This document shows, in pieces, positions 6,884-59,886 of a stretch of DNA of 64,000 nt (the stretch's first letter is position 1; the number at the start of each line of letters is the position of its first letter). The position numbers were made by a program, and so were the translations under genes. Below the pieces are notes generated by a model. It saw only the letters and a list, made by a program, of their open reading frames with translations, was not told the DNA's origin and ran no database searches. This stretch comes from an uncultured Candidatus Saccharibacteria bacterium (lineage in GTDB: Bacteria > Patescibacteriota > Doudnabacteria > UBA920 > 2-02-FULL-46-11), in the NCBI GenBank assembly GCA_964609765.1, contig CAZSSD010000001.1, forward strand, positions 45,282 through 109,281. The letters run 5' to 3'.

Positions 6884-6889
6884 AAGATG

Positions 6890-14417: not shown

Positions 14418-14903
14418 ATGAGCAGACGAAAGAGCTGGAGAACGAACGGGATCGGCAGCGACCTCTATGCCGTGGTCGAAGCGATCGTCAACCTGAACGC
14501 CTACCTTGGCGGGATCTGGGTCGGCGTGCCGACGCATGGTCTCAGGGTTGAAGAATTCAGAAGCGGCAACCCTTCCGTACTTCGCGTTCGGTTTCCACGC
14601 TGGACCGAGCAAGAGTGGATCGAGCTCGTGCTCTCGGAAGACCAGGAGAATCCCGAACACGCCCGCTGTATCCAAAGGGGCCGGGTGCGCTGCCCTGCGT
14701 TCGGAAAGAGAGTTGGTGAGAAGCAATGGCTGGGATTCGCGTTCGATAACCTCGCCAACTGGTATGGGGGGGCCAGGTTTTTCGACTTCATCAATGCAGA
14801 CAGCGAGGCTCTCGTGCGTCAAGCTTTTGAGGGCCGGGCAAGTGTGCTCGAGCATTGCCACAACATTGCTCTGACAACTCTGGCAGAACTCGAGGGGTTC
14901 TAG
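14418..14903 (+). CDS. hypothetical protein (161 aa) in a high-GC island; probable horizontally acquired ORFan
   Basis: Strong GC3 bias (about 75% G/C at third codon positions) in this frame only. Has a GGAAGGGAG RBS, an upstream promoter and a downstream terminator. The minus-strand ORF 14334..14861 lacks these signals. Confidence 0.5.
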   Translation: MSRRKSWRTNGIGSDLYAVVEAIVNLNAYLGGIWVGVPTHGLRVEEFRSGNPSVLRVRFPRWTEQEWIELVLSEDQENPEHARCIQRGRVRCPAFGKRVGEKQWLGFAFDNLANWYGGARFFDFINADSEALVRQAFEGRASVLEHCHNIALTTLAELEGF

Positions 14904-14934
14904 CAGTAAGTGGCCCGCTGACTGAAACGTACGG

Positions 14935-14985: not shown

Positions 14986-16467
14986 ATGTCTACACGTCAA
15001 CAGAGCTTGCGGGAGGACAGGTTAAAAAAGATTGAGGATTTAAAAGCGCGCGGGGTTGACCCTTATCCCGTTGATGTTTCGGATGACCGCGAGCCGATTG
15101 GTGATGTATTGTCCGAATTTAAAGATGTGGCCGGTGAACCTGGGTCGACCTTGAACAAACTTGCTACCATCGCCGGCCGGGTGCGATCGATGAGATTGCA
15201 CGGGAAAGTTGCATTTGTTGATTTGGAGGACCAATCAGGCCGCATGCAGGCTATGTTTCGCGCCGATGATGTTGGCGAAGAACAATTTAATGTTTTTGTT
15301 AATGATGTCGATGAGGGTGATTTTATTGAAGCAAGCGGCAGTTTGGGTATCAGCAAAACCGGCGAAAAGTCTATTTTCGCCAACGGTTGGCGGATGCTCA
15401 CAAAATCGATTCGGCCGATCCCGTCTGAATACTACGGCTTAAAGGACGTCGAACAGAGGTTGCGTAAGCGCTATCTTGATTTAATCGCCAACCCGGAAAC
15501 GCGTGAAATGTTCAGGCAAAAATCGAAATTTTGGCAAAGCCTGCGCCAATTTTTGCTGGACAACGGCTTCATGGAAGTGGAGTTGCCGGTTTTGGAATCA
15601 ACGCCCGGCGGCGCCGAAGCCGAGCCTTTCGTTACCCATCATAACGCTCTTGATCGTGATTTTTATCTGCGTATCTCCTTAGAGCTGCCGCTTAAACGGC
15701 TTTTGGTGGGCGGTTATGAAAAAGTTTTTGAAATCGGCCGCATCTTTCGTAACGAAGGTATTGATGCCGAACATCTGCAGGATTATACACAAATGGAGTT
15801 TTATTGGGCTTACGCCGATTATCAGGATTTGATGGTCTTTTTGCGCAAGATGTACCAATATGTAATAGAAAATACTTTCGGTACCCTCAAAACCACTTAC
15901 GACGGTAAGGAAATCGATTGGTCAGGCGAATGGCCGGTGGTCGATTTTTACGATTTATTTGAAAAATATGCCGGCGCTTCACCGGATTTAAGCGAGGCGG
16001 AATTGCGCACGGTGGCCGAGAAAAATGGCATTGATGTCAGCGAAATTTACGGTAAGGGTAAGGTTATCGACGCAATCTATAAACGCAAAGTGCGGCCAAA
16101 TCTAGTCCAACCGCAATTTATGATTAGGCCGCCGGTGGAAATGGAACCGCTGGCCAAGCGCGATCCCGAATTTCCCAACCGCGTGCAGCGTTTGCAGATC
16201 ATGGCCGGCGGTACCGAGCTGGGCAAGGGTTTTTCCGAGCTTAATGACCCTCTTGACCAGCGTGCGCGTTTTGAAGAGCAAATGAAGCTGCGCGAAGTTG
16301 GCGATAAAGAAGCGCAGATGCTGGATGAGGATTACGTGGAAGCTTTGGAGTATGGCATGCCGCCAGCGGCAGGTTTTGGCATATCCGAACGACTATTTGC
16401 GGTGTTGGTTGATAAACCAATCAGAGAGATAGTTTTCTCTCCGCCAATGAAAGACCCCGGGAACTAG
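14986..16467 (+). CDS. lysS: lysyl-tRNA synthetase, class II
   Basis: N-terminal OB-fold anticodon-binding region and class II motifs (FRNEG..., GGxELGxGFSELNDP). Confidence 0.9.
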   Translation: MSTRQQSLREDRLKKIEDLKARGVDPYPVDVSDDREPIGDVLSEFKDVAGEPGSTLNKLATIAGRVRSMRLHGKVAFVDLEDQSGRMQAMFRADDVGEEQFNVFVNDVDEGDFIEASGSLGISKTGEKSIFANGWRMLTKSIRPIPSEYYGLKDVEQRLRKRYLDLIANPETREMFRQKSKFWQSLRQFLLDNGFMEVELPVLESTPGGAEAEPFVTHHNALDRDFYLRISLELPLKRLLVGGYEKVFEIGRIFRNEGIDAEHLQDYTQMEFYWAYADYQDLMVFLRKMYQYVIENTFGTLKTTYDGKEIDWSGEWPVVDFYDLFEKYAGASPDLSEAELRTVAEKNGIDVSEIYGKGKVIDAIYKRKVRPNLVQPQFMIRPPVEMEPLAKRDPEFPNRVQRLQIMAGGTELGKGFSELNDPLDQRARFEEQMKLREVGDKEAQMLDEDYVEALEYGMPPAAGFGISERLFAVLVDKPIREIVFSPPMKDPGN

Positions 16468-27017: not shown

Positions 27018-27110
27018 GGAGAGGTAGCCAAGCGGCCAAAGGCGCCGGGGTGTTACTCCGGTGATCGGGTCAATACCTGGTCTGCGTGGGTTCGAATCCC
27101 ACCCTCTCCA
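27018..27110 (+). tRNA. class II (long variable arm) tRNA, Tyr/Ser-like D-arm; the anticodon loop reads gUGUUAc (apparent GUU)
   Basis: Acceptor GGAGAGG/CCTCTCC plus discriminator A. D-arm GCC-AAGCGGCCAAA-GGC. Anticodon stem CCGGG/TCCGG. 24-nt variable arm. T-arm GTGGG-TTCGAAT-CCCAC. No encoded CCA. Confidence 0.75.
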
Positions 27111-30914: not shown

Positions 30915-33584
30915 ATGAGAAAGTTTAGGCCGGGAGCCGGAGACGGAAAAGACGAACAAGACGAAGGAGTTCGCTTTTGGGATCCGGAAGGCAAGCTGAA
31001 AAAAGTAACACCGGGCCGAATACGGGAAAAAGAGGGCAAAGAACCAAGCAGGCCTATTTTTATTAGAGGGTCCATGGAGAAGCCGGAATTTTTTCCCTAT
31101 GGCTACGACCAGCCATGGTTATCAGAACGCACCGCCGGCCTAGACAAGCTAACAGTACCCGAGCTTGAAGTCGAATTGAGCAAACTTGAACTCCTTTTGG
31201 AAGGCCTTAACCGCGGTGAAGCCCAAAGAAAGGGCAGTTTCCGAGAGCAATTATTGCTGGCTGAACGGATAAGCGCGATTAAGGCATTATTGGCAACCGC
31301 TGATAGAATCAAGCCCATGGCCGCGGAAAGTAAGGTTGCAGATACGTCATCTGTTGTTGAGCAGGTTTTCGAGCATCCAGAAGTTATTGAACAAGAGCCC
31401 ATACTCGTCGAGCTTATTAGAAAACATGTAATTCAAGACCTTAAGGAATTAAGCCAAAAGGAGCTCGATATGGAGGCCACGGCGATGGTTCAGGAGATAA
31501 GGGCCTTGGGTCTGCGTAAAAAAATTGAACCGCGGTTAGAGCAGGCCTACGAGTGGGTCTTGGCTGAAAAGGAGAACCGCCTCAAGGCCAACAGGCTTGA
31601 GGGTGATGATTTTACGCCTCCGGTTGATGCCACAGAGCGTTTTGTGATCCCGGCCGCATATTTGAGCAATCCTGATTTGGCGTTGTATCCCGCCGCCTTG
31701 GTTCGCGAATCAGACCAAGCCGAATTGGAGGGCTTGCGGGACCATGTTGCCAGTCAGATTAAAGATGCGGAAGAATGGCCGGACTCTAAGAAAAAAAGGG
31801 CAATGTTTGCCATACTCAAGAGGCGCCTAGAACAACTGGAATCTGAAATACAAAGTCGCCTGCAGCGACTGGAATCTCAAAAACAAAGGCGTGATGCCAA
31901 AATAAGAGCTGAAGAAGAAAAGTATTGGCACGGGCCAAAAATCCTATATGATGGCCGTGAAAAAGAACTGACTCTGGAAGAGCAAGTTGCCTGGTTGGCC
32001 AGCGAGATTAGGCATGCGAGCACCCGGATGCTGAAAACCAAAGCACAAGTGGAGCCGCGCGAGCGATACATTTCCCAACTTAAAAAAGCACTTATCAGAA
32101 AACAAGAAGAGTTGGTTGTAACCAAACGATATGTGGGCGAACCAAATGGCGAGCCTGCGGCCGAGCCCGCGGGGGAAGCGGGCGAGGTGGCTAGACCCGC
32201 GGCCATAGATTGGCGCGCTGACTTAAGCGACGAAATCGAGCGGGGTACCATCAATCTCCCTTCTGCGCAGGAGTTGGAGGGCTCCACGCCCGATCAGCTC
32301 AACGGCATTGTCACTAAAGTATTGCCCTCTATTCGAAGGCGGCTGACCCGCGATCATCAGGAGGACCCGGCCGAACTGCGTAGAAAATTAGATGCGGTTA
32401 CGGCCTATGAGGAGCAGGTTTTAGCGCCTGTTTTGCAAGTGGTTCAGGACCGAGCCAACCAAGCTAAAAGCAAGCCGGCGACCGAAGCGCGGGCTGAAAA
32501 TGACGCTACTCCCGTTACTGAAAAACCTACTCCTGCCAGCCGAGGGCGCGGCCGGCCTCGAAAGGAAGTCCAAGCAGAAGATCAAAGCACCGTTAGACTT
32601 CGCCAAAAACTCGCTGATCTGAATACAGAAATCGAAACCAGAGAGCGCCAGAAGGCAGAACTGGTAGAGCGGCAGAAGCGGCTGACCGCAGCTTTTGATA
32701 ATTTAAAGGAGTTGAGAGACTTTATAGATACAATCGAACTCGGCCAGGGCGAACCTACCGAGAAAGAAACGCAAGCGGTTGACCAACTTGTTCGCAAAGC
32801 CTTTGCCGCGCTTAACAGCCTGGTTCTGGTAGAATATACATCACTTGACTACCGCAAAAAAATAGAAAAAGGCAAAAAGGAAATTCTAAAGTTAAGGTTG
32901 GAACCGGGCAAGTTAATAGATGTTGATTTTGTCAAAATGGAAGCTCGCGCCGAAAACGGCGATTTATTGGATACACTATTCGTTTCCGCGGACGGACAAC
33001 TGGGGCTCAACAGACCAAAGCAAAAGCCTATCCGGGAGGTGGAAGCCATGCGTATTATTTTGGGCGATCTTAGGGCGATCGCATTGAATTTTAGAGATTT
33101 GGTTGGCAGTGAAAGGGTTCAAGTTCGTAGGGAACTTGGTTATTTGGGGGATAAGGTGCTTGCACCACTTTATGCGGCGCGCGATAAATTTATCGGCATG
33201 CTCGCTACCCGAAGACCCGAGCAGGCAGCGGCAGGAGAAAAAGGTAAAAGTGGGCGACCGGGTAAGCGCGAGGGCAGAAAAGAAGTTCCGCCTCGTTCCG
33301 CGCAAGCTGTTCCGGCCGAGACTCCTCCAGCACCCGAAGCTCGAGCCAGCGGCAATGAAACCGATGCCGAGAAAATCCGCAAAAGCTTCGCTTCGTTATT
33401 TGCGGTAGCGGCGCGGCGAGCCGGTGGGGTGGGCAAAACTTTTAGCATCCAAGGGCCGCAAGGTGTTATTAGTGGTGAAATGTTGGACATGCATAGTATT
33501 TCGGTGGCGCGTAAAACTCCCGAAGGCCAAGAGGTCGAAAAAGGCATCATTACCAACGACGGGCACTTTATTCCCAGCAAGTAA
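30915..33584 (+). CDS. giant hypothetical protein (889 aa), highly charged coiled-coil with an AT-hook-like GRGRPRK
   Basis: Extended-TGn -10 box TGGTATAAT at 30855. K/E/R-rich heptad-like segments and an RGRGRPRK motif. First gene of a co-directional cluster. Confidence 0.6.
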   Translation: MRKFRPGAGDGKDEQDEGVRFWDPEGKLKKVTPGRIREKEGKEPSRPIFIRGSMEKPEFFPYGYDQPWLSERTAGLDKLTVPELEVELSKLELLLEGLNRGEAQRKGSFREQLLLAERISAIKALLATADRIKPMAAESKVADTSSVVEQVFEHPEVIEQEPILVELIRKHVIQDLKELSQKELDMEATAMVQEIRALGLRKKIEPRLEQAYEWVLAEKENRLKANRLEGDDFTPPVDATERFVIPAAYLSNPDLALYPAALVRESDQAELEGLRDHVASQIKDAEEWPDSKKKRAMFAILKRRLEQLESEIQSRLQRLESQKQRRDAKIRAEEEKYWHGPKILYDGREKELTLEEQVAWLASEIRHASTRMLKTKAQVEPRERYISQLKKALIRKQEELVVTKRYVGEPNGEPAAEPAGEAGEVARPAAIDWRADLSDEIERGTINLPSAQELEGSTPDQLNGIVTKVLPSIRRRLTRDHQEDPAELRRKLDAVTAYEEQVLAPVLQVVQDRANQAKSKPATEARAENDATPVTEKPTPASRGRGRPRKEVQAEDQSTVRLRQKLADLNTEIETRERQKAELVERQKRLTAAFDNLKELRDFIDTIELGQGEPTEKETQAVDQLVRKAFAALNSLVLVEYTSLDYRKKIEKGKKEILKLRLEPGKLIDVDFVKMEARAENGDLLDTLFVSADGQLGLNRPKQKPIREVEAMRIILGDLRAIALNFRDLVGSERVQVRRELGYLGDKVLAPLYAARDKFIGMLATRRPEQAAAGEKGKSGRPGKREGRKEVPPRSAQAVPAETPPAPEARASGNETDAEKIRKSFASLFAVAARRAGGVGKTFSIQGPQGVISGEMLDMHSISVARKTPEGQEVEKGIITNDGHFIPSK

Positions 33585-33598
33585 TTTACCTACTCAAA

Positions 33599-36199
33599 AT
33601 GTCAGATCCTATTCAACCGGGTTCGCCAATTGATCCTACTTCAGCCGAGACAGGCAGTGAGCTTTCTGACGCAGCTCATCTAGTCTCTAGTTTGCGTCAA
33701 AACATTGAAGAGGTTTCGGCTATGGTTGCCGGCGTTTCCGCAAAGAAAGCGCCTTTGGCTGATTTTTTCCCCATTTGGCAGCGTGTTAAGCAGATACGTG
33801 AACAATTTAAACAGTTACCTGATGTCCCGCTTTGGCAGGACGAACAAACGCAATTATACGAGGCCTATGAAGCCATTCGTTATGGCCGCTATCAAGAATT
33901 TTTACGCGGTGCACTTGCTGACGCCCTTCAAGAGCTAAATCCCGATTGGCCTGAATCAGAAGTAAATCGCTACCGCAACACAATGTCTTTGCCAGAAATG
34001 CAGGATAAAGTTCTCAATGCTGCAAGACTGGTACGTAGATTGAACGAGAATTTAGATTTTCTCCGGGGCGTACTATCTCACGCACCCGAGCTTAAAATTT
34101 TGGAAAATATGGAGACTTTGCTCGCGGCCCAAAGCGAAATTGAAGACATTATAGATCAGTTGCAAAGCACTCTTGAAAGCGGCACCACGCCAATCAATAC
34201 GGGCTTAGTGGCGGAGTTGCGCGAGCGCGTTAATAATGTAAAAAAAGACCTCGCAGATTTAAACCGAAAAGCATCAGAGGAGGGTCAAGTTCAGCCTGCT
34301 GCAGAGTCGGCGCCAGTGGAAACAGAACAGCCAGTTCCGGCTGTAGTTACTGTCGAGCCGTCTGCGGCAACGCCGTCGGCGGAGCGGGAAGCCATTGAAA
34401 TAACCGGTTCGCTGGCTAAAAAAATGGAAAATATTTACGCCAACTTGCAGGACAAGGGTGTTAATGTTCCATATGGGTTATACCATTTTGAATTTAACGG
34501 GACCGATGTAGCTTTCTATGTAACTGCTGATTTTGAGGGTCAGGGCCGGTATGTGGGAATAACATCTACCGAAAAAGGACGCTCGGTACAGGTTGATTTC
34601 CGGCTCTATCTTGATTTGGGCAAAGTTGAATTACGTAAAGGAAGCGACAAACAAATTGTAACCGGCGAGCCGGCCATGGCTACGCTCGAGGACCTATTGG
34701 TTAAGCTGGAAAGCGGTACGGGTAAAAAATTTATAAGCGAACCGGCCCGGACTGTGGCGGAAACCCAAGAGCCTTCGCCCACGGATTTGGACGCAGCTTT
34801 GCTACACGAGCAGGAGGAACCGGCTATGCCCGAGGCCGCGGTAACAGAGGCAAGAGAAATTGGGCGGCCGCAGCCTGCTGAAATTGCCGCATCGGGATGG
34901 GAGAATCTTGTTATGCCGTCAACTTCGCTGCGGGCGCCGCTCAATGTTATAGAGCGATCGGACGGCACCCATGCTATCTACATCAGAGCAGGCGCGGAAA
35001 TAGACCACATAGCTGTCGGCGGCATCAGACATAATTTATTTCCTGAAGCCGAGGCTTATGAAAGATTAGAAACAATTGAACCGGCCATAGTGCGCATTCA
35101 GCCCACCACAACCGCCGGCGAAGTCACCTATAGCGTGGTCAAGCAAGGCGTGGTCAAGCAAGCTGGAGAAGCTGAACTAAGACCGGCCTCTCCCTCTGGC
35201 CTGGCCGCGCAACCCGCTTTGGGCGCAGAAATAATTGCGGAAGCGCCGACAACCGAGATGGAACCGGCGCCGGTTGAGGCGACTCCGACCCCGCAAGCCC
35301 CACCTGCTCCCGAGGAACGCGAAGAAGATGTAGCGGCAGTTCCTGATGCTGCCCAACCCGAACCAGAACCCCAACCAGAACCAGAACCTATTAGACCGGA
35401 ACGGCAGCAAACTTTTGATATGGCGGAATTTGCCGCGCTGGCGGCTGAATTCGCGCGGGAGGCGGATAAAGAAGATTATTACACCTGGGAAATGGGTCTT
35501 GCCCGCTTACCCCAAGAGCTTATCGACAGTTCAGAAGAGAGATTAAAACGAATCAGAGTGATTATTGATGAGTTTGGGCATTTAATTGGGCTAGAGGCAA
35601 AAGTTAAAGATGATTTAGGTTACGAGCTTCGTATTTCTGTTCAAAAAAGCGCTTTCAGTAGTTCGGCAAAAGACGGCGTGCGGGTAGTTTTAAACTTTGC
35701 CGACAAGGATATGAAAAGCATAACCTGGAATTTTGTCGACGATGGCTATATTTCTTTTAGCGGATGGTTGGGTAAAGACCCTTTACCTGATTTTGCCAGC
35801 AAACACAATCTGACTAGTGTCCAAAAGGATGCTCTGGCTGTTTCTGAATTTGAAAGATTGATTATGCCCCTAAAGGGGCGGCTTGAGGAAGTTGATAAAC
35901 AAAAACAGATAGCCGCCGCCGAAGCAGAACTAGAAAAAGAAAGAGAAAAAGAAAGAGACGACTATGAGCCGATAACTAGGGAGCAGAGATTAGTAAATCA
36001 AACGAAGTATAATAGGTTAGCGCCGCTTGCGGCTAAAGCTAAAAACGGCAGACTTGAACTTCCTAATGGACAAGTTTTGGAATTCTTGCCCGAGGCGGGC
36101 GAGAGCAGGCACAGAAATATTTTAGTAATTAACGAGGCAGATGGGACCTATGTAGTTATTGACGAAGAAGGCCATCGTCTGGCTATTGATTTAGAATGA
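33599..36199 (+). CDS. giant hypothetical protein (866 aa) with a PEPEPQPEPEP low-complexity linker
   Basis: 15-nt gap after the previous gene. Acidic, with a Pro/Glu repeat encoded by a CCAGAA tandem repeat at about 35346-35400. Confidence 0.6.
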   Translation: MSDPIQPGSPIDPTSAETGSELSDAAHLVSSLRQNIEEVSAMVAGVSAKKAPLADFFPIWQRVKQIREQFKQLPDVPLWQDEQTQLYEAYEAIRYGRYQEFLRGALADALQELNPDWPESEVNRYRNTMSLPEMQDKVLNAARLVRRLNENLDFLRGVLSHAPELKILENMETLLAAQSEIEDIIDQLQSTLESGTTPINTGLVAELRERVNNVKKDLADLNRKASEEGQVQPAAESAPVETEQPVPAVVTVEPSAATPSAEREAIEITGSLAKKMENIYANLQDKGVNVPYGLYHFEFNGTDVAFYVTADFEGQGRYVGITSTEKGRSVQVDFRLYLDLGKVELRKGSDKQIVTGEPAMATLEDLLVKLESGTGKKFISEPARTVAETQEPSPTDLDAALLHEQEEPAMPEAAVTEAREIGRPQPAEIAASGWENLVMPSTSLRAPLNVIERSDGTHAIYIRAGAEIDHIAVGGIRHNLFPEAEAYERLETIEPAIVRIQPTTTAGEVTYSVVKQGVVKQAGEAELRPASPSGLAAQPALGAEIIAEAPTTEMEPAPVEATPTPQAPPAPEEREEDVAAVPDAAQPEPEPQPEPEPIRPERQQTFDMAEFAALAAEFAREADKEDYYTWEMGLARLPQELIDSSEERLKRIRVIIDEFGHLIGLEAKVKDDLGYELRISVQKSAFSSSAKDGVRVVLNFADKDMKSITWNFVDDGYISFSGWLGKDPLPDFASKHNLTSVQKDALAVSEFERLIMPLKGRLEEVDKQKQIAAAEAELEKEREKERDDYEPITREQRLVNQTKYNRLAPLAAKAKNGRLELPNGQVLEFLPEAGESRHRNILVINEADGTYVVIDEEGHRLAIDLE

Positions 36200-39100
36200 G
36201 CAGTCACAACCAAGATTCCGAATTGGATGAATTAGAAAGAATGGCGCGCGAAGCGTTGCGAGCTCAAGGCGTGGACCCGGATGCTGCGTCGTCTGACGCT
36301 GAAGTTCCTTTATCGCCAAGCGAGCCGGCAAAGCCGCGCCGAAGGCGCGCAAGTGGCGCTGCGGCGGACGCCTTAGTGGCGCGGGCAGGGACCAGTTCGG
36401 GTTTATCCGAACCAGCGGTTCCGCCTGTACCCGAGGCAGCCCCGATGCCGCAAGCAGCGCCAAAGCGTAGGAGGGCTAGTGGTCAGGAAGCGGACGATCT
36501 GGTCAGCAGGGCTGGCGCTCCTACCGCCCAGCCGCCGAGAGTGAGAGTAGCAGAAACCAAGTCGGAGCCAACAATACCCGAGCCCGTGCCGGTCGCTCCC
36601 ATACCGCGTATAGAAAGTCCGTGGCTTGAGCCCGCGGCCGCCAAACCGCCGGAGCAAAAGACGGCCGGGGATGAAGAAATTATTGATCGCGAAACAATGG
36701 AGGAGATGCGCGGGCGCATTGAATCGGACCTCTCAACCCTGTCTCAAATGTCCGAGCCCGAGCTTGATCGGGTAAAGATTTCTATCGAGTCTTTTCAGAG
36801 ATTTACGGCTGATAAGGATTTACAGACAATTGAGCTGCATTGTTTTATAGCGGACGCGCTTTCACGGGTGGAAAGCGCGCGCCTGAAATTGAGAAATGGC
36901 GGAGATAAGAGATTGCCAGCGGAACAGGAGCCAACCAGGCCAGAAACGGAACTGGAAAGAGAATTGCGAGGCGTCATGGCTGAAGTTTTGTCTGAAGTCG
37001 GTTTAAGGCCAGATGAGGTCAAGGCCATAGATTTTGGAAAAATCTGGGCCTACCTTAAGAAAGTTGGGGGAACAAAAATAGATCTTAAAGATATGCTGAT
37101 TGCCGGCGGTCCGGCCATCGTTGTTGCGGGTATTTTGCGCTGGACATTACGGACTAAACTGGGCTGGGCACCGGAAACAGCCGGCGCCGTGGTGGGCGGC
37201 CTGTTCGGCTTGGCCAGGGGTATAAGCGCCGAAGATAGGCGCCAGCAGACGCGCCGGACAAAATATCAGGAAATTCTGCACGAGTTTACGGCCACGGGCG
37301 GATTTGACGGCTTGTGGGCAATGGCTGATAAGGATATTTTAAAGGCCATGACTACGGTTTTGGCCATGCGCAAGACAGTGGAAAAGGCCGAGGGCGAGCT
37401 TGACCCGGCACGTTATCAGGAATTGACGGATTTAATCACCAAGCAGGAGATTTTACTATTGCGCCGGAAAGAGTTGCGGGAGAGCCAAGGCGTGGAACGC
37501 TTGGTTAAATTTATGGCGGTGACGCGCGGTGTAAACCTTGATGGCTTGCAAAGCCAGCGTAAATTACTGCTGCACCGTTTTATTCTAGACCGGACTGTCG
37601 GCGCTGAAGTAAAAATAGCGGCCGGACAGCGGCGGGATTATAAAGCCGTGGCCGGCAAGGCCGTGGCCGGTGCGGCCATTGGCTGGAGCATGGCGGCTTT
37701 GACTGATTTGCTCTTTGATTGGGCAAGAGTCCGATTTTTTAGCGGTGCCCCGGCCGAAGCGGCGCCGGAGGGTGCCGGACCGAGTGAAGCACCAACCGGA
37801 GCGGAAGGAGCGCCTGCCGAGCCAACCACACCTCCGGCTGAAACAACTGACACGTCAACTGCGCCCACTCCCACAGAGCAGCCGCCAGCGCCGAAACCAG
37901 ACATAAAAGCAGCACCGGCGCCCGCCGCGGCTGAACCGGCTGAACCTACTACGCCCGCTGCCGGCGACTTAGAGCGTGCTTTAACGGCCGCGTCGGACCG
38001 AGCCCAAGACATAGTCAAAGAAGCGCGCGAAGCGGCCGCCGCCGCGCGCGCGGCCATGGCCAATGCGCCGAGCGAACAAGCTCGTACCGCTGCTGAACTC
38101 GCGGCCCAAAAAGCGGAGGCCGCCGCCCAAGCCGCCGAGCGAGCCGCGGCTGAAGTAGGCAGGGCCACTACGCGCGAAGCGGCGCAAAAGGCGCTTCGGG
38201 AAGTGGCCGGCAAAGTGGCGGAAGCGCAAATGGAGCAGCAAGCGGCCGAGGCGGCCACGGCCGCAGGCAAGGCCATTGAAATTGCGGGCGAAAAGATTGT
38301 GATACCCGGGACGCTCATGGATGTCACGAGCGAGGCCGGCAAAAACGGCATCTCCTATCTGGTGCGGGATCAGCTTGAATATATTGCCGACCAAGTTAAG
38401 GGTAATGCGGAAGTGTTGCAAAAGATATTCGGTCCGAGCATTGATGCCGCGGATGTGGCCGAGCGATCGGCGGACTTTAGGCAGGCTTTGCGGGAAAAAA
38501 TGTTTGCGGTTTTGGAAAACAATGAGGTGGACGGTAAAACCATTCTTAAGTTAGATGAGGCAGGGAAGGTAATTTCTGAAGTACGTTTAGGCGCCGCTGA
38601 TGTTAATACCGTGTCCATAGAATACGACCCCTCTAATCCGAGTGGCTTTGCGGTGAAGGTCGAACCGCCGACCTATGTTGAACCTGTTGCGCCGGCCCAA
38701 CCTCTCGCGCCGCCAGCAGAAGCGGCGGCGTCACCGGCCGCCTGGCCGAGGAAATTTTCGCTTGAAGACTTACTGAAGTTCAGAGAGGCCGTTAATTCGC
38801 CCAATTTCCCGGAGTCGGTAGATAAATTGGGCGGGCATTTTAATCTTCAAGAGCCGTCCTTGCCGCCGGACGGAGTTCCGCAGCCGCCTGATTATTTGCG
38901 CGAGGATTTCTGGCAGGGCCACGCGCCAACTAAAATGGGTCTTTTATTCGAGGCGCCCACGACAGCCATGGCCGCGGCGCGCCTGTGGTTTTTAGGAAGT
39001 ATGGTCAGCGCCGGACTTTACGGCGCGCATGAGGCCACTCAAGCCGTCGTCTCCCGAGTCTCGTCAAAGACTGAAAAAACTCCCGGGGCCGGCCTTGCCC

Positions 39101-39501
39101 CGGAGGCGAAAAAGTTTGTCAGATTGCGCGAGCGCCTCAAAGCCAAAGATAAATCACGCATGAGCAGCCGCGAAAAAGTGGTCACGGCCTTAATTTATCT
39201 CAATCCCAAAGATTTTGTTAACCCCGGCGAGCGCACCCTGACGCCTTTGGAATTTTACGGCGATAAAGAAACGCCGGGCGTTTATCGCTTAATTAAAAAT
39301 CACAACTGGCCGGCGGTATTTAATAGGCTATTGGCTTTGAAACTTGAGAAAGGCCCGGAAAAACGTGAGCTTATTGATGAGGCCGCGGCCTTGCTGGGCG
39401 ATTTGGAAGGCGCCCGCGTGGCCTATATCAATTATAAAAACGGTCGCCAGTCTAAAGAGACGGCCGCCATTGATCGCGGCGCGTCGCGGCTCGCGGCCTA
39501 A
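36196..39501 (+). CDS. giant hypothetical membrane protein (1101 aa) with Ala/Pro/Thr-rich linkers
   Basis: 4-nt overlap with the upstream gene. Internal TM helices (GGPAIVVAGILRW; AVAGAAIGWSMAALTDLLF) and a long APAEPTTPPAETTDTSTAPTPTEQPPAPKP region. Confidence 0.6.
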   Translation: MSSHNQDSELDELERMAREALRAQGVDPDAASSDAEVPLSPSEPAKPRRRRASGAAADALVARAGTSSGLSEPAVPPVPEAAPMPQAAPKRRRASGQEADDLVSRAGAPTAQPPRVRVAETKSEPTIPEPVPVAPIPRIESPWLEPAAAKPPEQKTAGDEEIIDRETMEEMRGRIESDLSTLSQMSEPELDRVKISIESFQRFTADKDLQTIELHCFIADALSRVESARLKLRNGGDKRLPAEQEPTRPETELERELRGVMAEVLSEVGLRPDEVKAIDFGKIWAYLKKVGGTKIDLKDMLIAGGPAIVVAGILRWTLRTKLGWAPETAGAVVGGLFGLARGISAEDRRQQTRRTKYQEILHEFTATGGFDGLWAMADKDILKAMTTVLAMRKTVEKAEGELDPARYQELTDLITKQEILLLRRKELRESQGVERLVKFMAVTRGVNLDGLQSQRKLLLHRFILDRTVGAEVKIAAGQRRDYKAVAGKAVAGAAIGWSMAALTDLLFDWARVRFFSGAPAEAAPEGAGPSEAPTGAEGAPAEPTTPPAETTDTSTAPTPTEQPPAPKPDIKAAPAPAAAEPAEPTTPAAGDLERALTAASDRAQDIVKEAREAAAAARAAMANAPSEQARTAAELAAQKAEAAAQAAERAAAEVGRATTREAAQKALREVAGKVAEAQMEQQAAEAATAAGKAIEIAGEKIVIPGTLMDVTSEAGKNGISYLVRDQLEYIADQVKGNAEVLQKIFGPSIDAADVAERSADFRQALREKMFAVLENNEVDGKTILKLDEAGKVISEVRLGAADVNTVSIEYDPSNPSGFAVKVEPPTYVEPVAPAQPLAPPAEAAASPAAWPRKFSLEDLLKFREAVNSPNFPESVDKLGGHFNLQEPSLPPDGVPQPPDYLREDFWQGHAPTKMGLLFEAPTTAMAAARLWFLGSMVSAGLYGAHEATQAVVSRVSSKTEKTPGAGLAPEAKKFVRLRERLKAKDKSRMSSREKVVTALIYLNPKDFVNPGERTLTPLEFYGDKETPGVYRLIKNHNWPAVFNRLLALKLEKGPEKRELIDEAAALLGDLEGARVAYINYKNGRQSKETAAIDRGASRLAA

Positions 39502-39503
39502 AA

Positions 39504-39818
39504 TTGGACAAAAAAATGGACACACCCAAACAAATTGCGGACAAATTATTCAAGGAACTCAATTTGCAGAACCAGCCGCCCAAACGCCAACAGGAAGTGC
39601 TGGAAGAGCTGGTTGAACATTTTTCGCAGGTCATCATTACAACCATGCTGCGCCAAGTTAATGACGAGCAGTTTGCCGATTTGGAAAAGGCGCTCAACTC
39701 GACCGATTGGCAAAATGAGGTTTTGCGCATTGCCGGGGAGGTTCCCGGCCTGGCCGAAGCCATAGAAAACAACATTCAGAGCGAATATGATATGATGAAG
39801 ACGGTTATGAACTCTTAA
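39504..39818 (+). CDS. small acidic helical hypothetical protein (104 aa)
   Basis: Tightly packed between giant gene 3 and the next ORF. TTG at 39504 or ATG at 39516. Confidence 0.45.
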   Translation: MDKKMDTPKQIADKLFKELNLQNQPPKRQQEVLEELVEHFSQVIITTMLRQVNDEQFADLEKALNSTDWQNEVLRIAGEVPGLAEAIENNIQSEYDMMKTVMNS

Positions 39819-39824
39819 AACAAA

Positions 39825-40487
39825 ATGTCGTCAATATTTAATCGCAGCGAGCAAAAAGATTATAAGGTTGAACCGATTGCGCCGCCCCCGCGTCCGCACT
39901 TGGAACAGGACCCGGACAAGCTTAAGGCACCCGGCCGGGCAGAGCTTGAAAATTTCGCGGCCCAAGGCTGGCTGGATAAAGCCAACATCTTTGCCTACGA
40001 GCGCGGCGGCGAAAGTGGCTGGGTCTTTTATACAACCGATGTTTTGAAAGATAAAATGGCCGCCGAGCTGCGCGCGGCCGGTTACAATGATATTCATATT
40101 GTCGCTATCAGTGAAAACGAATATGCCATTTATATCGCTAATCCGGCGGTGCGGGCCAGGCGTGAAGGCGAGAATTGGTTTCGCATGCGCGAGCGGCGCG
40201 TATCCACCGAGGCCGTCGCGGCGAGTAGTCTTGATCATCCAGCCGCTAACGCCGGCCCGGAAAGGTTGGCCGGCCCGGGCAGCCAAGATTTAAGTGACGT
40301 TGAACCTCCGCCTGCGCGGCCGGCAAGCGAGACGCAAAAGACGGTAATTGAAAAAATCGGCCCCGAAAATTTTTTACGCTTAACCATAAACCGGTTTAAT
40401 TCAAGCCGCGATCCCGGCTTTGACGAAGTTGACCTGGAGCAAGCTTTTTTTACGGCCCGGGCATATATTGAACAGAAACAAAATTAA
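39825..40487 (+). CDS. hypothetical protein (220 aa)
   Basis: ATG start; 2-nt gap before the downstream ATPase gene. Confidence 0.5.
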   Translation: MSSIFNRSEQKDYKVEPIAPPPRPHLEQDPDKLKAPGRAELENFAAQGWLDKANIFAYERGGESGWVFYTTDVLKDKMAAELRAAGYNDIHIVAISENEYAIYIANPAVRARREGENWFRMRERRVSTEAVAASSLDHPAANAGPERLAGPGSQDLSDVEPPPARPASETQKTVIEKIGPENFLRLTINRFNSSRDPGFDEVDLEQAFFTARAYIEQKQN

Positions 40488-40489
40488 AT

Positions 40490-43048
40490 ATGTTTGAAGA
40501 TTCGCCCACAAATTATTACGCAGCAAACGGCGGCGGCGCCGACTGGCTTTGGTATTTGGTTTTAGTTATAGGTTTGGTGTTCTTGGCTATGGTTTTTTGG
40601 AAACGCCGGGCAATCTTAAGCCGGGCCAAACTATTCCGTTCGCTTGATCTTGTTTTTTTTGAAGTTCTCATGCCCCGCGAAACCGCGGAAGATAAATTCG
40701 GCCAAGAATCCACCAAACAAAACGAAAAAGAAATAATCGGTATCGCCGAACAACTTTATACCACGGTTTATTATCCGTCGCCGCCCTGGTACAAGCGGTT
40801 TTGGACCGGGACGGATTCAATATCATTTGAGATTTCCGCTTTCCAAAAAAAGATCCATTTTTATGTAACCTGCCCCCGGGCGCTGGTGGGCGCGGTGGAG
40901 AGGCAGATACACGCGCAGTATCCCAAAGCGGCGGTTGAAGAAATAACCGGCTATCAGATATTTCGCAAGGGCAATTTTGTGGCGGCCACCGAGCTTAAAC
41001 TGCAAAAAAATTACGTCTATCCGATTAAGACTTACGCCGAACAAAATTCTGATCCGCTTGACGCCATTACTAATGCCATGAGCAAATTGACGGGCGAGGA
41101 GTCCATGTCGTTGCAGCTCACGCTCATACCCGCGCACGCTAAGTGGGGCAGGCGGCCGCGCCAATATGCGTCCGAAATTCAGCAAGGCAAACGGCCGGGC
41201 CATGTTATTATCCACCCCGCCCATAAAGTGGCCAGGGAGCTTGGCAAAACGGTGGGACAAGGCGTGGGGCAGCTTTTTGGCGCGACCGATAAAGCCGGCA
41301 ATTTGCCGGATCAAGACAACAAGCCCATCAATCTTACGCCCATGCAGCAAGAGATTGTAAAAAAACTTGAGGAAAAGGCGAGCAAAATATCCTGGCATGC
41401 CAATATCAGGCTAATTGCCGCATCGGAAACAAAGGTTATGGCCGAGAGCCACCTCAATACTTTGTTGGCGACTTTTACCCAGTACAGTATGCCGCCTTTT
41501 AACGGTTTTAAAATTCGCCACAAGAATGTAAAAAGAATTACCAAAGACTTTATTTTGCGCAATTATAACAGGAGCAAGATGATTCTGAATACGGCGGAAC
41601 TGTCTTCAATCTGGCATCCGGCCACCAAGTTTATGGAGACGCCCAATATTCAGTGGTTGACGAGCCGCAAAGCGCCGCCGCCGCCCAACTTGCCGGACAG
41701 CGGCACCCTTTTGGGCATTAACGTTTACCGTGATGTGGAGACTCCGGCTTACATCCTCGATGAAGATCGAATGAGGCACGTTTATATTATCGGCCGCACC
41801 GGCGTTGGTAAAACCGAGATTATGCAGAATATGGCCATTCAGGATATCCGCGCCGGCAAGGGTGTTTGCGTGGTTGATCCGCACGGCGAGTTTATCGAAA
41901 ACGTTCTGTACGCCATACCCAAGGAAAGGGCCGAAGATGTTGTCCTTTTTGAGCCAGCCGATATGGCCCGCCCGTTTGGTTTAAATATGCTTGATGTCAA
42001 GAATGAGGCGCAAAAGGACTTTGTGGTGCAGGAGATGATCGCCATTTTCGAGAAACTATTCCCGCCGGAGGTGATCGGCCCGATGTTTGAACATAATATG
42101 CGCAATGTTATGCTGACCCTCATTGCCGATCACAATGATCCGGGCACGCTTGTTGAGATACCGCGCATGTTTACTGATCCGGCTTTTCAGCGTATCTATA
42201 TCAATCGGGTTAAGGATCCGACCGTACTTTCTTTTTGGGAACAGGAAATGGCCAAGACCAGCGATTTTCATAAGTCTGAAATGCTGGGTTATCTTATTAG
42301 CAAGGTGGGCCGTTTTGTGGAGAATACGATGATGCGAAATATTATCGGCCAAAAGCGCAACTCCTTCGATTTCAGGGAAATAATGGATAACGGCAAGATT
42401 TTATTGGTCAATCTTTCAAAAGGCAAGATTGGCGAGCTTAATGCCAAGCTTTTGGGTTTAATTATCGTCAGCAAACTGCAAATGGCGGCGCTCTCACGGG
42501 CCGATCAGCCCGAGGCCGAGCGTCGCGAATTTTACCTTTATGTGGATGAGTTCCAGAATTTTGTGACCGACTCATTCGCCACCATACTTTCCGAGGCCAG
42601 AAAATACAAACTGGGGTTAAATATTGCCCACCAATACCTTTCGCAGCTAACCGCCGAAAAACCCGGCTCGTCCGCGCAGGATACCAAGGTGCGCGACGCC
42701 GTTTTTGGCAATGTCGGCACGATGGTGGCCTTCAGAATAGGCGTGGAAGATGCCGAGGTCATGGCCAAGGAATTTGCGCCGACGTTTTCCGAATTTGACG
42801 TTGTTAACATTGAACGTTTTAACGCCTACATTAAATTAATGGTTCATAATACGGTCACGCGTCCGTTTAGCATCAAAACGCTGAAGAGCGAAAAGTTTAA
42901 TGATCGGGAAACCGTGGAAGCTATCAGACGATTGTCGCGCTTGAAGTACGGACGCCCGCGCGAGCAGGTAGAAGCGGATATTCTTGAGCGCAGCCAGCTG
43001 CAAAAAATATCTCTGGAACCCAAAGACGTAAGAGGCCAATTTGCCTAA
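40490..43048 (+). CDS. membrane-anchored FtsK/HerA-superfamily P-loop ATPase (DUF87/VirB4-VirD4-like conjugation/secretion ATPase)
   Basis: N-terminal TM helix (WLWYLVLVIGLVFLAMVFW). Walker A IIGRTGVGKTE followed by VVDPHGEF (HerA/TraG-type motif). Walker B FYLYVDEFQNF. A C-terminal ...RKYKLGLNIAHQYLSQL as in TraD/TraG/VirB4 C-termini. Confidence 0.65.
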   Translation: MFEDSPTNYYAANGGGADWLWYLVLVIGLVFLAMVFWKRRAILSRAKLFRSLDLVFFEVLMPRETAEDKFGQESTKQNEKEIIGIAEQLYTTVYYPSPPWYKRFWTGTDSISFEISAFQKKIHFYVTCPRALVGAVERQIHAQYPKAAVEEITGYQIFRKGNFVAATELKLQKNYVYPIKTYAEQNSDPLDAITNAMSKLTGEESMSLQLTLIPAHAKWGRRPRQYASEIQQGKRPGHVIIHPAHKVARELGKTVGQGVGQLFGATDKAGNLPDQDNKPINLTPMQQEIVKKLEEKASKISWHANIRLIAASETKVMAESHLNTLLATFTQYSMPPFNGFKIRHKNVKRITKDFILRNYNRSKMILNTAELSSIWHPATKFMETPNIQWLTSRKAPPPPNLPDSGTLLGINVYRDVETPAYILDEDRMRHVYIIGRTGVGKTEIMQNMAIQDIRAGKGVCVVDPHGEFIENVLYAIPKERAEDVVLFEPADMARPFGLNMLDVKNEAQKDFVVQEMIAIFEKLFPPEVIGPMFEHNMRNVMLTLIADHNDPGTLVEIPRMFTDPAFQRIYINRVKDPTVLSFWEQEMAKTSDFHKSEMLGYLISKVGRFVENTMMRNIIGQKRNSFDFREIMDNGKILLVNLSKGKIGELNAKLLGLIIVSKLQMAALSRADQPEAERREFYLYVDEFQNFVTDSFATILSEARKYKLGLNIAHQYLSQLTAEKPGSSAQDTKVRDAVFGNVGTMVAFRIGVEDAEVMAKEFAPTFSEFDVVNIERFNAYIKLMVHNTVTRPFSIKTLKSEKFNDRETVEAIRRLSRLKYGRPREQVEADILERSQLQKISLEPKDVRGQFA

Positions 43049-52207: not shown

Positions 52208-52624
52208 ATGAAACCCAAAACAAAAACAAAAGGCTTTGCCATTATTGATACTATCGTCGCTATTGCTTTAGTCGGTCTGGCGACGATTGTGGTGGGTTTG
52301 ATTTATCCGGGCATGCGCATTTCCGAGCAGAGCCTGGCTCGGGTGCGCGCTTTAAGCATAGCCGAAAAGAAAATGGAAGAATTAAAAGCCGCGCAGTTCG
52401 AGGCTTTAGCCCTCGCCGCCAATACCGCTTTTTCGGATGCTGATTTAAACAAGTTAAAAAACGGATCAGCCCTTTACTCGGTGACGGCCCATGACGGCGA
52501 TAATGACGGCAATGTTGAGAATGATCTTAAAAAAATAACCGTGACGGTGAACTGGACTTATCAAAGTGAGAGTAAGGCTGTGACTCTAAATAGTTTGGTC
52601 AGTAAATATGGTTTGGCAAAGTAA
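52208..52624 (+). CDS. type IV pilin / pseudopilin (prepilin N-terminal methylation motif)
   Basis: KGFAIIDTIVAIALVGL: class III signal peptide plus a hydrophobic helix. Confidence 0.65.
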   Translation: MKPKTKTKGFAIIDTIVAIALVGLATIVVGLIYPGMRISEQSLARVRALSIAEKKMEELKAAQFEALALAANTAFSDADLNKLKNGSALYSVTAHDGDNDGNVENDLKKITVTVNWTYQSESKAVTLNSLVSKYGLAK

Positions 52625-53189
52625 GATAGAGAATACTAAAAATGGTTTTACTTTGGTCGAGGTGTTGGTTGTGATTGTCTTGCTTGGCATTATTGTCATT
52701 GGCGTGAGCGGCCTTTACCTTGGGCAGATTAGATTGACTGGCAATGAGTTTAAAGAGAGCGAAGTTGAAATCAAAACGGCCGCTGTTTTAAACGATATTT
52801 TCCGTATTGCCAACCAGGCCACCACCATACTTGCGTCCGCGACCATTAATAGCAATAACTACCTAACTGGCCCCAACACGGTGGTGCTTTCCCTGCCCAG
52901 TCTTGACGGGGCCAACAACGCCATTGAAGGTTCTGATGACATTTTAGTATACCGAAAAAATGCCGGTAGCGACCTGGAGCTGATTATTGATCCCGCGGCC
53001 GGGAGCAGCCGGACGGCGGGCGCTAAGATTATGCTTAGCGACATCGCCGATCTTGAGTTTGGCTATGAAAACGAATTAGATCCGGTTCAAAGCGGGTGGC
53101 TAAACGTTAAGATCAGCCAAAATGTGGAACTTTCAACAGGCAGCAAAAGTCTTGACCTGACTTACACTATTGTCTTGAAAAATAAATAA
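52608..53189 (+). CDS. type IV pilin / pseudopilin
   Basis: NGFTLVEVLVVIVLLGIIV prepilin motif. Confidence 0.65.
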   Translation: MVWQSKIENTKNGFTLVEVLVVIVLLGIIVIGVSGLYLGQIRLTGNEFKESEVEIKTAAVLNDIFRIANQATTILASATINSNNYLTGPNTVVLSLPSLDGANNAIEGSDDILVYRKNAGSDLELIIDPAAGSSRTAGAKIMLSDIADLEFGYENELDPVQSGWLNVKISQNVELSTGSKSLDLTYTIVLKNK

Positions 53190-57784: not shown

Positions 57785-58705
57785 ATGATAGAACGAAATT
57801 TGATTATTATTGGTTCGGGACCGGCCGGGCTAACCGCCGCCATCTATGCGGCGCGAGCCAATTTATCGCCGCTGGTTATCTCTGGATTGCAACCCGGTGG
57901 GCAGTTAACCCAAACCACGGAAGTGGAAAACTACCCGGGTTTCCCCGAAGGCATTCTAGGGCCGGAATTAATGGACAAGTTTAAAAAGCAGGCCGGCCGT
58001 TTTGGCGCTGAATTTGTCGATAGCGCCGTAGAAAGCGTAGATTTCGCAAGGCAGCCTTTTAAGGTAAAGGTGGCTGCTACGGAGTATAGCGCCAAGGCAG
58101 TTATTATTGCCACTGGCGCTTCCTCAATCTGGTTAGGTTTGCCTAAAGAGCAAGAATTAATAGGGCACGGCGTTTCATCCTGCGCCACCTGTGATGGCTT
58201 CTTTTTCCGGAATAAGGACATAATTGTGGTGGGTGGGGGCGACAGCGCCATGGAAGAGGCCACTTATTTAAGCAAATTTGTCAAAAGTATTAAAGTTGTG
58301 CATCGCCGCGGCGAACTAAAAGCCAGCAAAATTATGCAGGAGCGGGCCATGAATGACCCTAAAATTTCTTTTATCTGGAATACGGTGGTAGAAGAGTTGG
58401 TGGGCGATACTAAACTAGCGGGCGTCAAGCTGCGCAACGTGGAAACCAATAAAATTACGGAAATGCCGATCGATGGAATGTTTGTGGCTATCGGACATAA
58501 GCCCAACACCGGGGTGTTCAAGGGCCAGATAGATTTAGATGAGGTAAAAGGTTATATTAAAGTCCATGATCATACCAGGACCAACATTGAGGGCGTTTTT
58601 GTGGCGGGGGATGTGCATGACCATCATTACCGCCAGGCCGTGACCGCGGCCGGCTTTGGCTGCATGGCGGCGATGGACGCGGAGAAGTATCTGGGCTCGC
58701 GTTAG
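57785..58705 (+). CDS. trxB: thioredoxin reductase
   Basis: GSGPAGLTAAIYAAR (FAD), CATCDGFF (redox CxxC) and GGGDSAME (NADPH). Confidence 0.9.
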   Translation: MIERNLIIIGSGPAGLTAAIYAARANLSPLVISGLQPGGQLTQTTEVENYPGFPEGILGPELMDKFKKQAGRFGAEFVDSAVESVDFARQPFKVKVAATEYSAKAVIIATGASSIWLGLPKEQELIGHGVSSCATCDGFFFRNKDIIVVGGGDSAMEEATYLSKFVKSIKVVHRRGELKASKIMQERAMNDPKISFIWNTVVEELVGDTKLAGVKLRNVETNKITEMPIDGMFVAIGHKPNTGVFKGQIDLDEVKGYIKVHDHTRTNIEGVFVAGDVHDHHYRQAVTAAGFGCMAAMDAEKYLGSR

Positions 58706-58979
58706 CCTGTCGGTCTCCCGCCTAGCACCCTTCGAAAAACCGTCCTCAACTTTCTCCGGCGGAAAGTTGGGACTTAGCACTCGGACTCGCTCTTGCTTCG
58801 CAAGACCAAGCAGCTCGTCCTCCGTGAAATTTTTCTCAGGCCCTAGGCAGAGGCCTTAGCGTCCTATCCTCGCTCACCCCTAAGGAAAACTGAAAAAGTT
58901 GACGAATAGCGCCAAAAGCGCTACTTTTTAATGTTACACCGCGCCCGGCGATCCGGGTACCAGTGCTAGAGGAGGCATC

Positions 58980-59468
58980 ATGTCAGAGCCACTGTTCAGC
59001 CAAAACGGCCGGCGCATTACGTTCTACTGCGGTCTGGGCAGTACGAACTGCTACGCCAGGCAGGGTAGCAATGAGGAGCTGATCATCACGGACGGCGATG
59101 TGTTGACCGCACTTGGGCTGGTCTTCGCAGCCCGCGCGGATCTCGCCGATGTCTTCGAGCAGGCGCATTGGACCCGGAGCTACGCGCAGGAGACCGCCGA
59201 CATACTCGGCGCGGTCAGGTTCCAGGGCACCTCGTCCTCTCAGCCCAGGGTTAAGATAGATGTCGACGTGTCGGAATGCCGTTTGGAGTTCTATGGCGAG
59301 TTTCTGAAGGTAACCCTGCCGACTCACTGGTTCCTCAACAGGCTGCTTGACTTCCTTGCAAGGCACCCGCAACTTCCCGAGATCAGTGCGGCCCGGTTGA
59401 ACGCAAGCGCTTTGCGCGAGGGCTGGGCGGAGTTTGCCCGCACCCGATCGTCGCCTAGCGGCCGCTGA
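58980..59468 (+). CDS. hypothetical protein (162 aa) in a second high-GC island; probable horizontally acquired ORFan
   Basis: GGAGG RBS 5 nt before the ATG. High GC3 in this frame only. Strong terminator downstream. Both flanks are AT-rich. Confidence 0.5.
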   Translation: MSEPLFSQNGRRITFYCGLGSTNCYARQGSNEELIITDGDVLTALGLVFAARADLADVFEQAHWTRSYAQETADILGAVRFQGTSSSQPRVKIDVDVSECRLEFYGEFLKVTLPTHWFLNRLLDFLARHPQLPEISAARLNASALREGWAEFARTRSSPSGR

Positions 59469-59491
59469 ACAGCCGAGTTATGCCTCTTAAG

Positions 59492-59530
59492 GCCACCGGA
59501 GCCACGCGCCCGGTGGCTTCGGATTTTTTG
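59492..59530 (+). terminator. rho-independent terminator (GCCACCGG...CCGGTGGC plus TTCGGATTTTTT); an adjacent opposite-strand hairpin at 59536-59560 terminates trxA
   Basis: 8-bp GC stem followed by a T-tract. The second hairpin, AAACCACCC-gac-GGGTGGTTT, has its A-run on the + strand. Confidence 0.6.
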
Positions 59531-59565
59531 GGGACTAAAAAACCACCCGACGGTGGTTTGTTTGC

Positions 59566-59886
59566 TTAGAAATGGGCTTTGAGTTTTGCTTCAATAATAC
59601 TTTTGGGAACGACACCGATCACTTCGTCTACAACCTCGCCGTTTTTGAAAATTTTTAAATTTGGAATAGACATAATATTATAACGGCCTGCTACCTCGGG
59701 GTTCTCGTCCACATTTAGCTTGGCAATTTTAACTTTTTCGGCGTGTTCCGCGGCAATCTCGTCAAGCACCGGCGCGATTACCCGGCAAGGCGCGCACCAT
59801 TCGGCCCAAAAGTCTACCAACACTAATTTGTCAGAGCCGGTCACTTCACTGTCAAAACTTTGATCGGTCACAGTCACAGCATTCAT
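59566..59886 (-). CDS. trxA: thioredoxin
   Basis: FWAEWCAPCR active site; 106 aa. Confidence 0.9.
   Translation of the reverse strand: MNAVTVTDQSFDSEVTGSDKLVLVDFWAEWCAPCRVIAPVLDEIAAEHAEKVKIAKLNVDENPEVAGRYNIMSIPNLKIFKNGEVVDEVIGVVPKSIIEAKLKAHF

Follow-up and report, generated by a model that had tools for sequence, protein, structure and literature searches.

The locus described here raises two connected questions: what is the GC-rich open reading frame of 162 amino acids that stands between a thioredoxin reductase gene (trxB) and a thioredoxin gene (trxA), and how did it reach this place in the genome of a CPR bacterium? It lies in a stretch of 64,000 nucleotides, which was analysed at its full length and is referred to as the window. 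A previous sequence-only reading of this DNA had regarded the ORF as a foreign orphan gene with its own ribosome-binding site and terminator, and as one of two such islands. We propose that the segment 58898-59533 is probably a self-contained, moron-like single-gene unit, which was acquired horizontally and occupies a hot spot of cassette turnover.

The host of the window is a CPR/Patescibacteria bacterium of Doudnabacteria-like affiliation. Its TrxB shares 77% identity with the TrxB of Candidatus Doudnabacteria RIFCSPHIGHO2_02_FULL_46_11, and the best named relatives of LysS are likewise Doudnabacteria. The placement of the ORF between trxB and trxA, as given in the earlier reading, agreed with the source names and with the Pfam search on orthologous loci, where Pyr_redox domains were recognized in the trxB orthologues and the Thioredoxin domain in the trxA orthologues. 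The description of the flanks as AT-rich was overstated, since the window as a whole has 48.5% GC; the 500 nt on the left contain 53%, the 500 nt on the right 41% and the trxB-proximal spacer 55% GC.

It was clearly seen from the comparison with related genomes which part of the locus is additional. The spacer between trxB and trxA measures 178 bp and holds no insert in the nearest relatives (L003 from GTDB, L083 and L084 from ENA), compared with 860 bp in the window, and the gene order is the same in all three (Lon ... trxB> <trxA, dacC-like, mraY, amidohydrolase), which identifies the inserted segment as extra DNA (Table 1). The alignment with the relatives is lost at 58898 and is regained at about 59534. 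Orthologues at the same position in related genomes, which the sequence-only reading had set down as evidence against a foreign origin, were looked for, and the site was found either empty or with different ORFs instead. No TrxB relatives closer than those with 77%, 76% and 74% identity were found, and the window, L003 and the L085 lineage described below are about equidistant (TrxB 77/76/72%); the direction of the change, gain or loss, was therefore inferred from composition and repeats, without a resolved tree.

Table 1. Features of the trxB/trxA locus, in window coordinates.
Feature	Position	Strand	Description
trxB (thioredoxin reductase)	57785..58705	+	306-aa ORF, left housekeeping neighbour
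trxB-proximal spacer	58706..58897	+	host DNA outside the insert; two hairpins, with a T-run behind the second
Left target-sequence copy	58887..58897	.	AAACTGAAAAA; 10/11 match to the L003 empty site AAACTAAAAAA
Inserted cassette, whole	58898..59533	+	636 bp, 60.5% GC
Promoter-like element	58899..58927	+	TTGACG-17 nt-TACTTT; conserved before all three cassette ORFs
5' leader	58931..58979	+	hairpin GCCCGG-cgat-CCGGGT (58943-58958) and Shine-Dalgarno GAGGAGG (58969-58975)
Orphan ORF	58980..59468	+	162 aa, ATG start, 18.1 kDa, pI 5.9, no transmembrane segment
Cassette terminator (intrinsic)	59489..59529	+	GCCACCGG...CCGGTGGC stem and T6
Right target-sequence copy	59534..59542	.	ACTAAAAAA; 9/9 to the L003 empty site, 8/9 to the left copy
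trxA terminator hairpin	59537..59562	-	inverted repeat I8
trxA (thioredoxin)	59566..59886	-	106-aa ORF, right housekeeping neighbour, convergent with the cassette

The first ~190 nt 3' of trxB are alignable in all lineages, and in the trxB-proximal spacer the identity to L003, L083 and L085 is about 60%. A conserved pair of hairpins was noticed just 3' of trxB (window 58743-58835, L003 10935-11010, L085 1045-1140). In the first stem the two sides have changed together, in a compensatory manner, in each lineage (CAACTTTC/GAAAGTTG, CAGTTTTC/GAAAACTG and TAATTTTG/CAAAATTA), and the second hairpin is probably the terminator of trxB, as suggested by the T-run behind it. On the other side of the insert, the right target copy doubles as the minus-strand T-tail of the trxA terminator. 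The 8/9 repeat that flanks the insert in the window is marginal, its score being equalled in 875 of 20,000 trials of a control with real sequence (p about 0.05); around the array of the L085 lineage there is an exact direct repeat of 10 nt on both sides, a result attained by 18 of 20,000 shuffles. Transposons and MITE-like elements have terminal inverted repeats together with a target-site duplication. Terminal inverted repeats were not found at 58898/59533, while flanking direct repeats are present and short.

Concerning the ORF itself, the 162-aa frame was present in the ORF table, and the strong GC3 bias ascribed to it proved to be real: its GC content is 0.613 and its GC3 of 0.767 is the highest among the 51 tabulated ORFs (mean 0.527, sd 0.073). 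Expressed against the surrounding genes, this means 0.61 and 0.77 versus 0.49 and 0.53 for GC and GC3, and the excess appears at all three codon positions and is largest at the third. Open frames with 150 codons or more occur in 17% of random 630-nt sequences of the same composition, thus the length of the ORF alone is weak evidence. None of 3,366 random long frames attained a GC3 of 0.767 or a GC3-GC2 difference of 0.276, and the codon-position periodicity was significant in a chi-square test (p = 1.3e-6). The amino acid composition is also shaped by GC, with 1.2% Lys and 9.3% Arg as opposed to 6.9% and 6.0% in the host proteins. Taken together, GC3, periodicity and Lys/Arg usage indicate that the ORF was shaped as a coding sequence against a GC-rich background; the periodicity is genuine, and in its composition the gene is foreign to the host. 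The earlier claim of a foreign gene is thus sustained by the odd composition, by the failure to find a homologue and by the spacer of the nearest relative, which lacks the gene.

The signals around the ORF form a complete set, as far as they can be predicted. The unit appears to carry its own promoter-like element, which the sequence-only reading had overlooked. This element remained under the threshold of the consensus scan because its weak -10 hexamer fits at only 3/6 positions, and its spacer contains the palindrome TAGCGCCAAAAGCGCTA (58907-58923). The GGAGG ribosome-binding site was recovered within the sequence aGAGGAGGcatcATG at 58969-58982, where GAGGAGG precedes the ORF, and the clean rho-independent terminator was likewise found, with a stem at 59496-59522, T6 behind it and a folding energy of -24.9 kcal/mol.

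The same control sequences were met again in another lineage, in front of and behind unrelated genes. This third lineage (L085-L087, L098 and L099; TrxB 76%) has the same synteny with 1.5 kb between trxB and trxA, and its extra DNA contains two GC-rich ORFs, one of 185 aa (cassette 1), which has a transmembrane helix and matches STAS below the threshold, and one of 97 aa (cassette 2). The 162-aa, 185-aa and 97-aa ORFs have no mutual similarity. The module of 84 nt comprising promoter, leader and ATG (58899-58982) aligns without gaps to the module before the 97-aa ORF of L085 (70/84, 83%; E 2e-21), and the similarity ends at the ATG. Within it, the leader (hairpin GCCCGG-N4-CCGGGT and GGAGGAGG) is identical at 45/52 positions to that of the 97-aa cassette. 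The promoter core TTGACG-17-TAYTTT matches cassette 1 at 29/33 positions, the shared left junction included, and cassette 2 at 25/32; the terminator core matches the terminator of cassette 1 at 30/36 (83%). For comparison, the nucleotide identity is 72% in trxB and 60% in the adjacent spacer; the control modules are more conserved than trxB itself, and the difference between 83% in the modules and 60% in the neutral spacer argues for selection on the expression signals. The trxB/trxA site thus holds 0, 1 or 2 cassettes depending on the lineage, with mosaic control modules and unrelated ORFs, and it is this sharing of modules, likewise overlooked in the sequence-only reading, that suggests a cassette in a turnover site instead of a random foreign gene. 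The pattern of modules with a variable ORF is based on three cassettes from two lineages.

The modules were sought by nhmmer profiles, with three patterns in the case of IMG/VR, and they were detected nowhere else: neither in the rest of the window nor in 1.5 Mb of retrieved loci, IMG/VR or the metagenomes of JGI. Five matches which the leader pattern gave in the JGI set were regarded as chance, being located within coding regions of contigs of 66-71% GC with unrelated flanks. Two further observations concern the variability of this region. Between the two cassettes of L085 there is an ORF of 75 codons on the minus strand (1816-2040), with a segment that resembles a helix-turn-helix by eye (...GYAESTIARRYEKNEL...) and without a Pfam match, which may be the remnant of a mobile-element gene. 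The trxB/trxA neighbourhood is rearranged within the clade, as seen in the more distant L089 (3685-4927; TrxB 70%), where trxA is upstream of trxB, co-directional and overlapping with it, and Lon stands on the other side.

The search for relatives of the product was extensive, and the ORFan claim was upheld by it. No match to the 162-aa protein was obtained in Pfam, PADLOC, PHROGs and NCBIfam at E up to 10, a word-indexed search of 5.8 billion clusters returned the protein alone, and altogether no homologue was found among about 15 billion proteins. Exhaustive phmmer against 1.84 billion representatives returned the protein itself and P0005, a protein of 1143 aa (E 1.4e-8). The latter was rejected as an artefact of repeat summation: P0005 consists of 12 identical tandem repeats of 57 aa and gives a BLASTP E of 42, and its score does not mean homology, because one weak match was summed over the 12 copies. 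The PDB contained no match by sequence (best E 0.11), no match was obtained by tblastn in GenBank phages or PLSDB plasmids, nor was there one in IMG/VR; Rfam revealed nothing credible in the island. The single-sequence AlphaFold2 prediction, made without an alignment, reached a pLDDT of 44.5, thus it gives no positive support for the folding of the protein, and Foldseek with this low-confidence model found no match of TM >0.3.

Toxin-antitoxin and toxin-immunity pairs are made up of two small genes that lie side by side and are co-transcribed, one or both of them with a recognisable toxin or immunity domain. Here only one ORF stands between the putative promoter and the terminator, without a partner, and neither Pfam, PADLOC and NCBIfam nor PHROGs and the PDB produced a match, so the toxin or immunity role suggested by the earlier reading was not borne out. 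The product is predicted to be a soluble protein of ~18 kDa, which would have evolved in a high-GC gene pool. Our best guess, offered with considerable doubt and by analogy with phage morons, is that it might be an accessory or conflict-type protein.

The second island of the sequence-only reading is situated between greA (13694-14170) and lysS (14986-16467), at 14291-14928 of the window. Its compositional borders fall at the 15-nt inverted-repeat arms GTTTCAGTCGGCTGG / CCCGCTGACTGAAAC, and an upstream ORF of 45 codons overlaps by ATGA with the 161-aa ORF (14418-14903). The protein of this island is a singleton without a match in Pfam, PADLOC or PHROGs, and its AlphaFold2 model is poor (pLDDT 42.6). 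The greA-lysS gap of related genomes contains a different GC-rich ORF (L100) or a gene of the metallo-beta-lactamase fold (L102). As had been stated, the 162-aa and 161-aa ORFs have no sequence similarity, and modules of the trxB/trxA type were absent from the 14418 island. The composition of the cargo ORFs (the 162-aa and 161-aa ORFs, the two of L085 and the partial ORF upstream of lysS in L100) is similar, with GC3 values of 0.66-0.77 (0.69-0.77 in the ORFs of the trxB/trxA cassettes) as against 0.53-0.61 in the corresponding host genes. A synonymous-codon likelihood comparison favoured the pooled-cargo model for every cargo ORF, by +9 to +20 nats, and the host model for 42/42 host ORFs. The proposed check for a common signature was thereby carried out, and the two islands do have one in common; it corresponds essentially to GC-rich third positions, thus a single donor is not proven by it. 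A host or phage as donor, mentioned as an example in the earlier reading, was not found in IMG/VR, GenBank phages or PLSDB plasmids, and the cargo ORFs of L085, L100 and the 14418 island had no PADLOC, PHROG or viral match. As to the claim of two islands in 64 kb, both are indeed GC-rich, and the window contains further patches of this kind, which the earlier reading had missed.

A third such stretch of 0.8 kb, with about 59-61% GC, was recognized at 6885-7690, with the gene of an M50 peptidase on one side and proS on the other. Terminator-like hairpins stand at its borders; the stretch has no ORF >110 aa and no Rfam match, and may be a decayed cassette or an RNA of a new type. Another patch, of 61% GC, contains a tRNA of 93-95 nt on the plus strand (27018-27110), which has a long variable arm and looks class-II-like (Tyr, Ser or Leu) but has a GUU (Asn) anticodon; ARAGORN drew an 8-bp acceptor stem, the canonical reading being one of 7 bp with A73. 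This tRNA might serve in recoding or be allo-tRNA-like (for comparison see PMC5389517), or it might be a Tyr-type tRNA with an altered anticodon. The region 30915-43048 contains three very large ORFs (889, 866 and 1101 aa, the last with 57% GC) without a Pfam domain, followed by a TrwB/VirD4-like ATPase, an arrangement reminiscent of a module for secretion or for the transfer of DNA. A gene for a pseudopilin with an N-methylation motif is situated farther to the right (52608-53189). At its left end a block of low GC content (37-41%) extends over 36-5704 with five tandem genes, 4/5 of which end in a PEP-utilizers mobile domain, their N-terminal parts being otherwise unannotated.

The course of events that we consider probable at the trxB/trxA locus is the following. 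The 636-bp unit, consisting of the promoter-like element, the structured leader, the 162-aa ORF and the terminator, would have been inserted between the convergent trxB and trxA, and the original integration would have duplicated the A-rich target in the tail of the trxA terminator. The gap between the two genes would then serve as a hot spot of cassette turnover, where one ORF may be replaced by another while the conserved promoter/leader and terminator modules on its two sides are retained; in the simplest case this would take place by homologous recombination on these modules, following the uptake of DNA, or else by means of a recombinase. The gene would be transcribed on its own, and the cassette terminator might shield trxA from antisense read-through. 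Integrase or transposase Pfam domains were not detected among 40 ORFs of the 64-kb window.

This proposal has to be weighed against several other explanations. MAG contigs can be chimeric and the switch in composition is abrupt, as would be expected if reads of a high-GC organism had been joined into a CPR contig during assembly or binning; such a chimera is nevertheless extremely improbable, because both insert junctions recur with 100% identity in two independent run-level assemblies, L001 and L002 (SRR12113384 and SRR12113419), which span window 57827-59572 and 58735-59693 and reproduce the trxB-insert and the insert-trxA transitions, and because the same modules occupy the same site in a second lineage, in several ENA assemblies. 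A synthetic construct, which came to mind on account of a NotI string at the stop codon and of KpnI, BamHI, NcoI and NdeI strings in the leaders, was rejected, as the unit is found in syntenic CPR chromosomes from several independent environmental assemblies. It is very unlikely that the segment is a non-functional relic, that is, a GC-rich foreign fragment brought in by illegitimate recombination, the frame of which is no longer or was never expressed. The frequency of long frames in random sequences of the same composition (17%), the missing homologue and the low-confidence AlphaFold2 model would be compatible with a relic, but the frame is intact and has strong codon periodicity, a well-placed Shine-Dalgarno sequence is conserved in the second lineage, and the promoter and terminator modules are 83% identical versus 60% in the neutral spacer.

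Vertical inheritance was judged unlikely as well. According to this explanation the gene would be ancestral and deleted from the L003-type lineage, and its high GC content would result from the protein itself or from local mutation bias. The GC excess, being largest at third positions, is not explained by protein constraints, the shared leader is followed by ORFs that have no relationship and differ in length (162 vs 97 aa), and there is no orthologue in about 15 billion proteins. Nonetheless, the left junction and the promoter of the window align with cassette 1 of L085, thus a cassette may predate the split of these two lineages, and, as the three lineages are about equidistant, L003 may have lost it by a clean deletion between the repeats on either side. 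Exchange by a dedicated enzyme has also to be considered. Integron gene cassettes end in an attC site with R''/R' cores (RYYYAAC ... GTTRRRY) and are served by an adjacent platform of intI and attI. An integron-like or other site-specific system, in which the hairpins and the A-rich target would be recombination sites and the recombinase would be encoded elsewhere, could account for a fixed site at which conserved boundary modules enclose unrelated ORFs, for 0, 1 or 2 cassettes per lineage and for the short direct repeats that flank the arrays. We hold it to be rather unlikely: the borders have no attC core sites (the single match to a core, GTTGAAC at 59396, is inside the ORF), no integrase-type Pfam domain is present among 40 ORFs of the window, and each cassette has a putative promoter of its own, unlike integron cassettes. 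There is a similarly small chance that the locus belongs to a hitherto undescribed exchange system of Doudnabacteria-like CPR bacteria, unrelated to integrons, with a fixed trxB/trxA landing site, where orphan ORFs from an unsampled high-GC pool would be slotted between an expression platform and a terminator-like hairpin by a recombinase or through transformation.

The acquired single-gene unit, which we consider the most appropriate description, has its closest parallel in the morons of HK97/HK022-type phages, which were defined as extra transcription units (Cumby et al. 2012, PMC3594210). Like a moron, the cassette is additional DNA between genes that are adjacent in relatives (178 vs 860 bp), it contains a single small gene of obscure or accessory function, and its GC content differs from that of the surrounding genes (0.61, GC3 0.77 vs 0.49, 0.53). 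Morons have a promoter and a terminator of their own; in the cassette the terminator is clear, and the promoter-like element is conserved in three cassettes but stays below the threshold of the consensus scan. It differs from morons in being outside of any phage or prophage, flanked by Lon, trxB, trxA, dacC and mraY, with neither a PHROG match nor one in IMG/VR or GenBank phages, and in the control modules that are common to several cassettes, a feature absent from the moron concept. Putative mobile promoters are sequences of at least 50 nt and at least 80% identity upstream of non-homologous CDSs, where the upstream CDSs must not align either (Matus-Garcia, Nijveen & van Passel 2012, PMC3488235). 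The 84-nt module, at 83% between the window and cassette 2 of L085, corresponds to this definition: the downstream ORFs of 162 and 97 aa do not align, and the upstream CDSs are trxB and the 185-aa ORF, respectively. Unlike mobile promoters, it recurs in different genomes at a single orthologous site and comes together with a shared terminator and with foreign ORFs, and the variable element is the whole unit, beyond the promoter.

The resemblance to integron cassettes consists in small, often orphan and compositionally odd ORFs which are swapped at one fixed site, in the hairpin-forming 3' element and in the variable number of cassettes; the absence of attC cores from the borders and of intI from the window, together with the (putative) promoter of every trxB/trxA cassette, separates the two. 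Horizontal acquisition is documented in ultra-small Patescibacteria, with competence, conjugation and phages as proposed routes (PMC12455944), and the pseudopilin and the TrwB/VirD4-like ATPase of the window are in keeping with that description; the work cited covers islands and donor-recipient pairs, without a single-gene unit in conserved modules. CPR bacteria have tiny genomes with many genes of obscure origin, and the locus offers a testable case of an orphan gene arriving ready for expression, with its control sequences serving unrelated genes at the corresponding site of another lineage. Should this prove to be a general pattern, the modules could serve as search handles for the accessory gene pool of these uncultured organisms and for the mechanism that moves it; otherwise the case is one more small horizontally acquired gene. 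The cassette is a variation on morons, mobile promoters and gene cassettes and is nothing categorically new; what it adds to these known systems is a cassette architecture that is common to different lineages.
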